Source: Escherichia coli
GTDB taxonomy: Bacteria > Pseudomonadota > Gammaproteobacteria > Enterobacterales > Enterobacteriaceae
NCBI RefSeq assembly: GCF_017348835.2
Contig: NZ_CP071375.1
Reading direction: 5' to 3' (one strand)
Length of the DNA: 64,000 nucleotides
Every line of letters starts with the position of its first letter. Positions within the stretch are counted from its first letter, which is position 1. The notes under the pieces were generated by a model. That model was not told the origin of the DNA and ran no database searches. It was given only the letters and a program-made list of their open reading frames with translations. The translations under genes and the position numbers were made by a program. Positions 9,377-10,494 of the stretch are shown here, one piece after another.

Positions 9377-9624
9377 CACATTCTCCGTTAATTCTTTGTC
9401 ATATCGCACATTTTCGTTATGCCCTGGGCCCTAAGTGTATCAAAAACAGCAAGGGCGAAGGCAAAAGCACTGGTAGCGTCTGCTTCGTTGTCCCCGAAAA
9501 TAGAGAGGTTTCAGTCCTACATTATTAATGAATTTTTTGCATAAGTGATATCAAAATCCACATACTAATTTGAGGTTACGTTTTAACGTAGACTCATTGT
9601 TCATGCCTAATGGAGGGACTGACA

Positions 9625-10494
9625 GTGGAATTTTCCGTATTAAGTAACAATCTGAAAATGCCGATGATGGGATTTGGTGTTTTTCAGGTTACCGATAAAA
9701 ACGTGTGCAAACAGTCAGTGTTGAACGCTATCCGCACGGGTTATCGACTCATCGACACTGCAGCGGTATACGGTAATGAAGATGCTGTCGGTGAAGCCGT
9801 TCGTGAAGCCATATCCGAAGGTTTATGTACCCGAGAAGAGTTATTTATAACGTCTAAATTGTGGGTGCAGGATATGTTGAATCAGGATACGGCAAAAGCA
9901 GGTATTGAAGCGTCATTAAAAAAATCGGGACTAGAATACTTCGACCTCTATTTATTGCACCAGGCTATGCGCGATTATTTCAGTGCGTGGCGTGCACTCG
10001 AAGATGCCTATGAAGAGGGCAAATTAAAAGCAATTGGGGTTTCCAACTTCTATCCTCATGTTCTGGCGAACTTTTGTGAAACGGTAAGAGTTAAACCGAT
10101 GGTCAACCAGGTCGAGTTGCATCCCTATTTTGCCCAACCAGAGGCGCTGGCAACCATGAAGTATTATAACGTGCAGCCTGAAGCATGGGCTCCGTTAGGT
10201 GGTGGACGACATAAACCCTTTGAAAATAATCTGCTTCAGAGTATTGCAGATGCCCATCAAAAATCGATTTCTCAAGTCATTCTGCGTTGGAATATTCAAC
10301 GGGGAGTGGTCGTTATTCCGAAATCGACACATCAACAGCGTATCGAAGAAAATTTTGCTATCTGGGATTTCTCACTGACAGAGAAAGAAATGGCACAAAT
10401 TAGTTCGCTTGATTTGGGTTATGTTGGGGAGTCGGTAAAACATTTTAATCCTGAATTTGTTCGTGGTTGTCTTGCTGTAAAAATACATGATTGA
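9625..10494 (+). CDS. Aldo-keto reductase (DkgA-like), third AKR paralog in the window
   Basis: ORF 9610..10494; GTG at 9625 preceded by GGAGG favoured as start; motifs MPMMGFGVFQ, IDTAAVYGNE. Confidence 0.8.
   Translation: MEFSVLSNNLKMPMMGFGVFQVTDKNVCKQSVLNAIRTGYRLIDTAAVYGNEDAVGEAVREAISEGLCTREELFITSKLWVQDMLNQDTAKAGIEASLKKSGLEYFDLYLLHQAMRDYFSAWRALEDAYEEGKLKAIGVSNFYPHVLANFCETVRVKPMVNQVELHPYFAQPEALATMKYYNVQPEAWAPLGGGRHKPFENNLLQSIADAHQKSISQVILRWNIQRGVVVIPKSTHQQRIEENFAIWDFSLTEKEMAQISSLDLGYVGESVKHFNPEFVRGCLAVKIHD

Follow-up and report, generated by a model that had tools for sequence, protein, structure and literature searches.

The paralogous regulators Rob, MarA and SoxS act as monomers on marboxes, which are asymmetric sites of 20 bp; a symmetric site with two 6-nt halves is not a known mode of binding for this group. 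LysR-type transcriptional regulators (LTTRs) recognize dyads that carry a T-N11-A signature, of which ATG-N9-CAT is a form. Their recognition sites are usually found near -65, and they typically occupy this high-affinity site together with a second site at about -45 to -20. A site covering -30 to -5 of a promoter is in a classic position for a repressor. YkgA was described as a fourth MarA/SoxS/Rob paralog, the function and targets of which have 'not been identified' (PMC2064960). YqhC, which also belongs to the AraC family, binds the yqhD promoter region, in which a 24-bp palindrome is found together with a SoxS-like site (PMC6115493).

The locus described here is part of a window of Escherichia coli DNA, a term that denotes the whole stretch of 64,000 nucleotides that was analysed. 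Within the window, the gene for the Rob-like AraC-family regulator YkgA (8519-9376, minus strand) is divergent from an aldo/keto reductase gene, AKR3 (9625-10494, plus strand), and the two are separated by a 248-bp intergenic region (9377-9624). The original prediction regarded a palindrome in this region as a candidate operator for YkgA. Based on the comparisons reported below, it is probable that the segment 9522-9624 is instead an ordinary activator-type promoter joined to a translation-initiation region, and that the dyad within it is fortuitous and not an operator for YkgA.

AKR3 encodes a protein of 289 amino acids (RefSeq WP_001301722.1) that belongs to the Pfam family Aldo_ket_red and is DkgA-like; the gene is the intact form of the K-12 pseudogene ykgQ. 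Translation had been predicted to begin at a GTG (9625-9627) preceded by GGAGG, and the in-frame ATG at 9610-9612, which was selected by the ORF finder, had been noted to overlap this Shine-Dalgarno sequence. Both observations were borne out. The GGAGG (9612-9616) precedes the GTG by 8 nt, and the overlap and reading frame of the ATG were confirmed in the sequence. The AKR3 coding sequence was annotated from the GTG by RefSeq/PGAP in 4/4 intact E. coli records examined (O157 and three other lineages); the GTG start is already in RefSeq.

Orthologs were collected by scanning one genome per species, which identified 32 loci encoding relatives in Escherichia, Klebsiella, Citrobacter, Leclercia, Mangrovibacter, Pantoea, and some metagenome-assembled genomes (MAGs) of Firmicutes. 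The homologous codon was a GTG or ATG start in about 30 orthologs (GTG in enterobacteria, ATG in Phytobacter and Firmicutes), with a GAGG-type Shine-Dalgarno sequence 7-9 nt upstream, the GAGG core of which was conserved across the set. The proteins of the relatives all begin M-E-[YF] at this codon. The ATG at 9610 was found only in Escherichia and, as read from the sequence, has no Shine-Dalgarno sequence of its own. Twelve of 30 orthologs had no in-frame ATG, GTG, or TTG upstream before a stop, the nearest upstream stop being located at codon -1 in locus L019 and at codon -2 in locus L008. The length of the spacer between the Shine-Dalgarno sequence and the GTG differed by 1 nt among orthologs, and therefore the codons upstream of the GTG are not coding. 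These comparisons strongly support GTG 9625 as the start of AKR3, and the longer ORF beginning at ATG 9610 is an ORF-finder artefact.

The original prediction also placed a 14-bp palindrome at 9578, about 35 bp before the GTG. A palindrome of this length is present and ends 34 nt before the GTG, but it starts at 9577 and is interrupted rather than perfect. The sequence, TACGTTTTAACGTA (9577-9590, no strand assigned), was read directly as two 6-nt arms, TACGTT and AACGTA, flanking a non-symmetric TT. It can be extended to an imperfect dyad of 26 bp, TGAGgtTACGTT-TT-AACGTAgaCTCA (9571-9596), in which 10/12 arm positions are paired. The level of symmetry expected by chance was estimated by shuffling the intergenic region (248 bp, 9377-9624) 2000 times with dinucleotides preserved. 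At least one perfect inverted repeat with 6-nt arms and a spacer of 0-6 nt was present in 33% of these shuffles, and a dyad with at least 10/12 paired positions was present in 5.6%. Given these frequencies, the core palindrome is unremarkable, being not beyond chance, and the symmetry of the extended dyad is marginal; the excess over expectation that would mark a palindromic repressor operator was not found. Neither the palindrome nor the 26-bp dyad had a second copy beyond chance in the 64-kb window, where a single palindrome match with 2 mismatches, at 62334, was at chance level.

Conserved elements of the AKR3 upstream region were delineated from an alignment of 25 enterobacterial upstream regions. 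The resulting footprint consists of ATTnATGAAT-N6-CATAAgTnAnATC, which corresponds to window positions 9522-9552, followed in order by [CT]TAAT[CT], a T-tract, TAGAAT, GAGG, and GTG. In the window, the most upstream of these elements includes a box, TAATGAA-TTTTT-TGCATAA (9526-9544, plus strand), which contains ATG-N9-CAT and is a putative LysR-type T-N11-A site. The sequence CTAATT (9565-9570, plus strand) lies 18 nt upstream of TAGACT (9589-9594, plus strand), which is preceded by the conserved T-tract and is the predicted -10 element, reading TAGAAT in most genera; CTAATT may serve as a weak -35 element and/or as an activator contact. Identity to the window in other genera was 79% for the box (20 genera), 73% for CTAAT, 74% for the -10 element, and 77% for the Shine-Dalgarno sequence. 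When TAGACT is taken as the -10 element, the transcription start site (TSS) is predicted near 9601. Relative to this predicted TSS, the centre of the box (9535) is at -66 and CTAAT is at -36 to -31. A T-N11-A dyad is thus present near -65, a position that rests on the predicted TSS. The core palindrome lies at about -24 to -11, inside the promoter spacer; it runs from within the 18-nt spacer into the predicted -10 element, of which it takes up the first two bases. The 26-bp dyad, which overlaps the -10 hexamer, spans -30 to -5, again counted from the predicted TSS.

A generic scan for sigma-70 promoters and terminators over 9300-9750 returned nothing, the TAGACT promoter being missed because its -35 element is poor. 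No report of a TSS, binding, or expression was found in the literature for the AKR3 promoter. For the K-12 region between ykgA and ykgQ, AtoC is the only protein with reported binding. Its ChIP site, ACTATACGGAAAATTCCACT (PMC3118216), shares sequence with the GTG and with the junction of the K-12 deletion, but not with the palindrome.

The same promoter layout was found upstream of a paralogous gene in the window. AKR2 (2728-3579, minus strand), the product of which is 45% identical to that of AKR3, is preceded by a perfect dyad, TTATGAA-N5-TTCATAA, with 7-nt arms (3660-3678, minus strand). The AKR3 box differs from it by 2 mismatches and has the same spacing, and the distance from the AKR2 dyad to the start codon is 80 nt, equal to that from the 9526-9544 box to GTG 9625. 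From the box to the start codon, the AKR2 and AKR3 promoters aligned without gaps and were identical at 52/108 positions, compared with 28.5 +/- 4.5 in shuffles; the box, CTAAT, the -10 element, the Shine-Dalgarno sequence, and the start codon were in one common register in both. The spacer of the AKR2 promoter (TTCTCTTTACGTTA) is not palindromic.

A gene for a LysR-family regulator (745-1680, plus strand; Pfam HTH_1 and LysR_substrate) is present in the window and is a candidate for the cognate regulator of AKR3 as well as of the AKR1-AKR2 operon. Homologs of this protein with 50-91% identity are encoded next to AKR3 orthologs at loci L003, L005, L007-L010, L012, L015, and L028: identity was 91% in L003, 81% in Phytobacter, where the gene is directly upstream, and about 50% in Citrobacter, Kosakonia, Leclercia, Acerihabitans, and Erwinia. 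The homolog was adjacent in 9 of about 24 enterobacterial loci and divergent in 5. The Lachnospiraceae (Firmicutes) loci L021, L030, and L031 have LysR neighbours as well. In the window, the LysR gene is 7.8 kb from AKR3, beyond two AKR genes and the fdeC-ykgA block. It was found in 1900/5426 E. coli genomes and intact AKR3 in 2936, and for this reason the LysR protein of the window cannot be the sole AKR3 regulator in every strain. Taken from sequence and gene order, AKR3 is probably controlled by a LysR-family regulator, and a LysR-type activator is the best-supported candidate. The protein encoded at 745-1680, next to two paralogous AKR genes, is most plausibly this regulator, although which protein acts on the promoter is a less certain assignment than the kind of site it would bind.

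Conservation of the dyad was examined within E. coli and among the orthologous loci. Window positions 9380-9700 were 100% identical to several O157:H7 and other chromosomes. This region was found in 5039/5426 complete E. coli genomes, and a 55-nt segment around the dyad had at least 95% identity in essentially all 5039 genomes having it. The dyad was invariant in 5/5 diverse E. coli strains aligned (O157, Nissle/B2, a K-12-like strain, a river isolate, and 2013C-3252). This invariance is uninformative, since the 130 bp upstream of AKR3 were almost invariant among the same 5 strains, and the whole promoter, with identity of at least 95%, is equally invariant within E. coli.

Full pairing of the arms, at 6/6 core and 10/12 extended positions, was confined to E. 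coli proper. A ykgA ortholog with 86% identity occupies the same divergent position in Escherichia sp. E1V33 and E. whittamii, which at the palindrome site read CATGTTTTAACGTA. Their left arm is CATGTT (two changes), their right arm is unchanged, and both outer arms are degraded, which leaves 4/6 core and 6-7/12 extended positions paired. Two further Escherichia lineages, which are without ykgA (L002 and L003), had 2-4/6 positions paired, and the homologous columns of 20 other genera had 0-3/6 core and 0-4/12 extended positions paired. No alternative dyad was present at the homologous position in these 20 genera. No compensatory changes in the arms were found in any ortholog compared, and the pairing does not covary. 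The left arm (9571-9582) is the least conserved segment of the promoter, its identity being 58% among the other Escherichia lineages and 27% when other genera are compared. A palindromic repressor operator would be kept, or would covary, where its regulator is present; the AKR3 dyad does neither.

The history of the neighbourhood was reconstructed by a blastn comparison of the window with L003, an Escherichia lineage without fdeC and ykgA in which AKR2 and AKR3 are divergent across 250 bp with both boxes. Homology was detected over 833-3683, then over 9522-10488, and again from 14339. The segments that are extra in the window relative to L003 are fdeC-ykgA (3684-9521, no strand assigned; fdeC is also named eaeH), which splits the AKR2 and AKR3 halves of the control region, and rclCBA-rclR (10495-14338). 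Homology resumes at 9522, 4 nt before the box, which argues that the promoter module of AKR3 is unbroken and existed before ykgA became its neighbour. A ykgA ortholog was found beside AKR3 only in Escherichia (L004 and L027), and the promoter is conserved in about 20 genera without ykgA nearby. From this gene order, fdeC-ykgA looks like a later block that split the AKR2/AKR3 control region, a difference that could have arisen by insertion here or by deletion in L003.

An operator through which the divergent, Rob-like YkgA controls AKR3, as YqhC does for yqhD-dkgA, would suit the arrangement of the two genes, the location of the dyad across -30 to -5 of the predicted promoter, and the low frequency of 10/12 dyads in the shuffles (5.6%), and the yqhD promoter, with its SoxS-like site and 24-bp palindrome, provides a precedent (PMC6115493). 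This proposal is nevertheless quite improbable. E1V33 and E. whittamii have an 86%-identical ykgA and yet a disrupted dyad with no compensating change, and the promoter is kept in about 20 genera that lack ykgA nearby. YkgA combines an HTH_18/AraC domain at its N terminus with a GyrI-like domain at its C terminus, and RobA models match it over the full length with 195 bits; since this score is under the equivalog cutoff of 380, the protein is a Rob paralog and not Rob itself. Its match to the full-length RobA model points to the asymmetric, monomer-bound marbox of Rob, MarA, and SoxS rather than to a symmetric site. No convincing marbox (AYnGCACnnWnnRYYAAAYn) was found in 9377-9624, where the best matches, at 9567-9586 and 9385-9404 (both minus strand), agreed with 10/14 specified positions; two such matches are background, and the one at 9567-9586 has AAAC instead of the GCAC element. 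The resemblance of YkgA to YqhC is confined to the HTH region (24% identity over 95 aa), the domain order is opposite, the HTH of YqhC being C-terminal, and the AKR3 dyad has no sequence relation to the yqhD palindrome, ATTTCTCCAG-CACT-CTGGAGAAAT. The proposed role of the palindrome as a YkgA operator was thus not upheld, and the dyad site is no good evidence for a YkgA target. A modified form of the proposal is that E. coli proper evolved a new 26-bp spacer dyad after the arrival of fdeC-ykgA, a small number of left-arm substitutions having rendered that arm complementary to the conserved -10 flank, and that YkgA or a different dimeric regulator now uses the dyad as its operator. If true, this would represent a recent rewiring of an old LysR-controlled promoter to a newly adjacent Rob-like regulator, a scenario that is judged distinctly improbable. 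Even when all variants are pooled, a young E. coli-specific operator is unlikely.

A recent, E. coli-specific operator for some other dimeric regulator could take a MerR-type layout, with TTGAGG (9570-9575) as the -35 element, a 19-nt spacer containing the dyad, and CATTGT (9595-9600) as the -10 element. TTGAGG matches TTGACA at 4/6 positions, the centre of the dyad (9583.5) is close to that of the spacer, and the aligned E. coli strains show no variation in the dyad. The MerR-type arrangement was rejected, however, as its hexamers are unconserved even in sister species, which have CTGCGG or CTGTGG in place of TTGAGG; the outer arms are likewise unconserved, CATTGT matches a -10 element at 3/6 positions, the scan detected no promoter, and the window contains no other copy of the motif. 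No E. coli regulator is known to have this half-site, and an operator of this kind is very improbable. MetJ was also considered, given that the two ACGT cores of the dyad have the 8-bp spacing of tandem metboxes (AGACGTCT). Agreement with the metbox is limited to 5/8 and 4/8 positions and does not extend to G2 and C7, the positions contacted by MetJ; this reading was set aside.

Rather than being a palindromic operator, the dyad spacer might form part of a low-affinity activation-binding site (ABS) of the LTTR that binds the box. The centre of the box near -66 and the conserved CTAAT at -36 to -31 are what such a site would lead one to expect, but conservation of the left arm is essentially random (27% in other genera) and the corresponding AKR2 spacer has no palindrome, which makes this reading unlikely as well. 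The RNA of 9568-9600 folds to -9.6 kcal/mol (z = -3.3 relative to shuffles), as would be expected if the dyad formed a hairpin within an extended 5' UTR and so influenced the stability or translation of the mRNA. Such a hairpin would need a TSS upstream of 9571, where there is no plausible promoter, and it would place the conserved TAGAAT-type -10 element inside the hairpin; the pairing is neither conserved nor covarying, and the Shine-Dalgarno sequence is not sequestered. A role of this kind is extremely improbable.

The reading preferred here is that of an ordinary activator-type promoter. The functional parts would be the elements that are conserved across Enterobacterales, namely the box, CTAATT, the T-tract with TAGACT, GGAGG, and GTG. 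The right half of the palindrome would correspond to the conserved T-tract and -10 flank, and the left half to unconstrained spacer that complements the right half by chance in E. coli proper only. The dyad is most likely fortuitous because its left half is free spacer and its right half is the conserved -10 flank. A LysR-family regulator, likely the protein encoded at 745-1680, would bind the box at 9526-9544 and control AKR3, and the fdeC-ykgA block would be a later neighbour of an older promoter.

The palindrome should therefore be dropped as a candidate operator of YkgA, although this in itself matters little. The analysis yielded two by-products. One is a testable hypothesis on regulation, in which a LysR-type box and promoter layout would be shared by AKR2-AKR1 and AKR3/ykgQ, which comprise three uncharacterised AKR genes. 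The other is that the fdeC-ykgA and rclABC-rclR blocks flank AKR3 as additions relative to another Escherichia lineage.

When set beside the known systems, AKR3 fits fully with a canonical GTG start preceded by a Shine-Dalgarno sequence, and no difference was found in the spacing of this sequence, its conservation, or the PGAP annotation. YkgA belongs to the MarA/SoxS/Rob paralog group, but the ykgA-AKR3 intergenic region differs from the promoters controlled by these proteins in that it is without a convincing marbox. The locus resembles YqhC and yqhD-dkgA in that an AraC-family gene is divergent from a gene for an aldehyde/keto reductase and in that the target promoter contains a dyad; it differs in that YkgA has an N-terminal HTH and a GyrI-like domain and in that the AKR3 dyad is not kept where ykgA is. 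Compared with LTTR promoters, the LysR gene is 7.8 kb away in this window and many E. coli with AKR3 are without it, whereas the promoter itself shows the expected likeness, with a T-N11-A dyad at about -66 from the predicted TSS, a weak -35 element, LysR genes adjacent and often divergent in many genera, and a perfect version of the box in the paralogous AKR2 promoter.

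The promoters of AKR2 and AKR3 are collinear and align without gaps, and that of AKR2 contains a perfect dyad with 7-nt arms (TTATGAA-N5-TTCATAA; 3660-3678, minus strand), which lies 80 nt ahead of the AKR2 start codon. This collinearity suggests that the three aldo-keto reductase genes belong to one LysR-type regulon. On either side of AKR3, the window has a block that locus L003 (Escherichia, strain SCPM-O-B-8794) lacks: one comprises fdeC (eaeH) and ykgA (3684-9521) and the other rclC-rclB-rclA-rclR (10495-14338). A single 250-bp control region separates the divergent AKR2 and AKR3 genes in L003, and AKR3 is followed there by ykgE.

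The AKR3 promoter also contains a small dyad, GTTA-CGTTT-TAAC (9576-9588), which overlaps the reported interrupted palindrome and is offset from it by 1.5 bp. The L003 sequence in this register is AAGTTA-TATTT-TAACTT. Among the compared loci, no conservation of the small dyad was found beyond the window and L003, and because it is unconserved elsewhere, it is probably fortuitous as well. In Escherichia sp. E1V33 and E. whittamii (L004 and L027, about 2690-2850), the ykgA-proximal half of the ykgA-AKR3 intergenic region includes approximately 146 additional bp (alignment A1, columns 85-254) that are absent from E. coli.

Relatives of AKR3 with 70-81% amino-acid identity were detected in metagenome-assembled genomes (MAGs) of gut Firmicutes and in one marine gammaproteobacterium (loci L021-L025, L030, and L031, of which L024 is from Marinobacterium and the others are from Lachnospiraceae, Clostridiales, and Erysipelotrichaceae MAGs). 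This identity is unusually high at such distances and suggests that the AKR3-type reductase has been transferred horizontally. LysR neighbours were present at several of these loci too.

At the start of the window, the LysR-AKR1-AKR2 cluster is intact (1-3600, compared with 1-4200 of L001), whereas O157:H7 strain PV15-279, which is identical to the window across the reported dyad region, has an ISEc8/IS66 insertion at this location, together with no more than a partial AKR gene. The LysR gene of the window is 100% identical to that of strain EC1515, and only 76 genomes carry it at 99% identity or higher. Given the intact cluster and this identity pattern, positions 1-3600 are, judged from their sequence, atypical for an O157:H7 Sakai/EDL933-like genome. 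The fdeC (eaeH) gene is divided between two ORFs in the window (4145-5047 and 5153-8398), is annotated in the O157:H7 RefSeq record as a pseudogene containing an internal stop, and is intact in Nissle and other strains.

In K-12-like strains, AKR3 was reduced to the pseudogene ykgQ by two internal deletions (window 9641-10225 and 10275-10365; L035, 1750-1810), and the gene body is less than 80% covered in approximately 2100 of 5050 E. coli genomes. An AtoC ChIP/motif site, ACTATACGGAAAATTCCACT, has been published for the K-12 ykgA-ykgQ region (PMC3118216). This site covers the GTG start and crosses the first deletion junction of ykgQ, so part of it is exclusive to deletion alleles.
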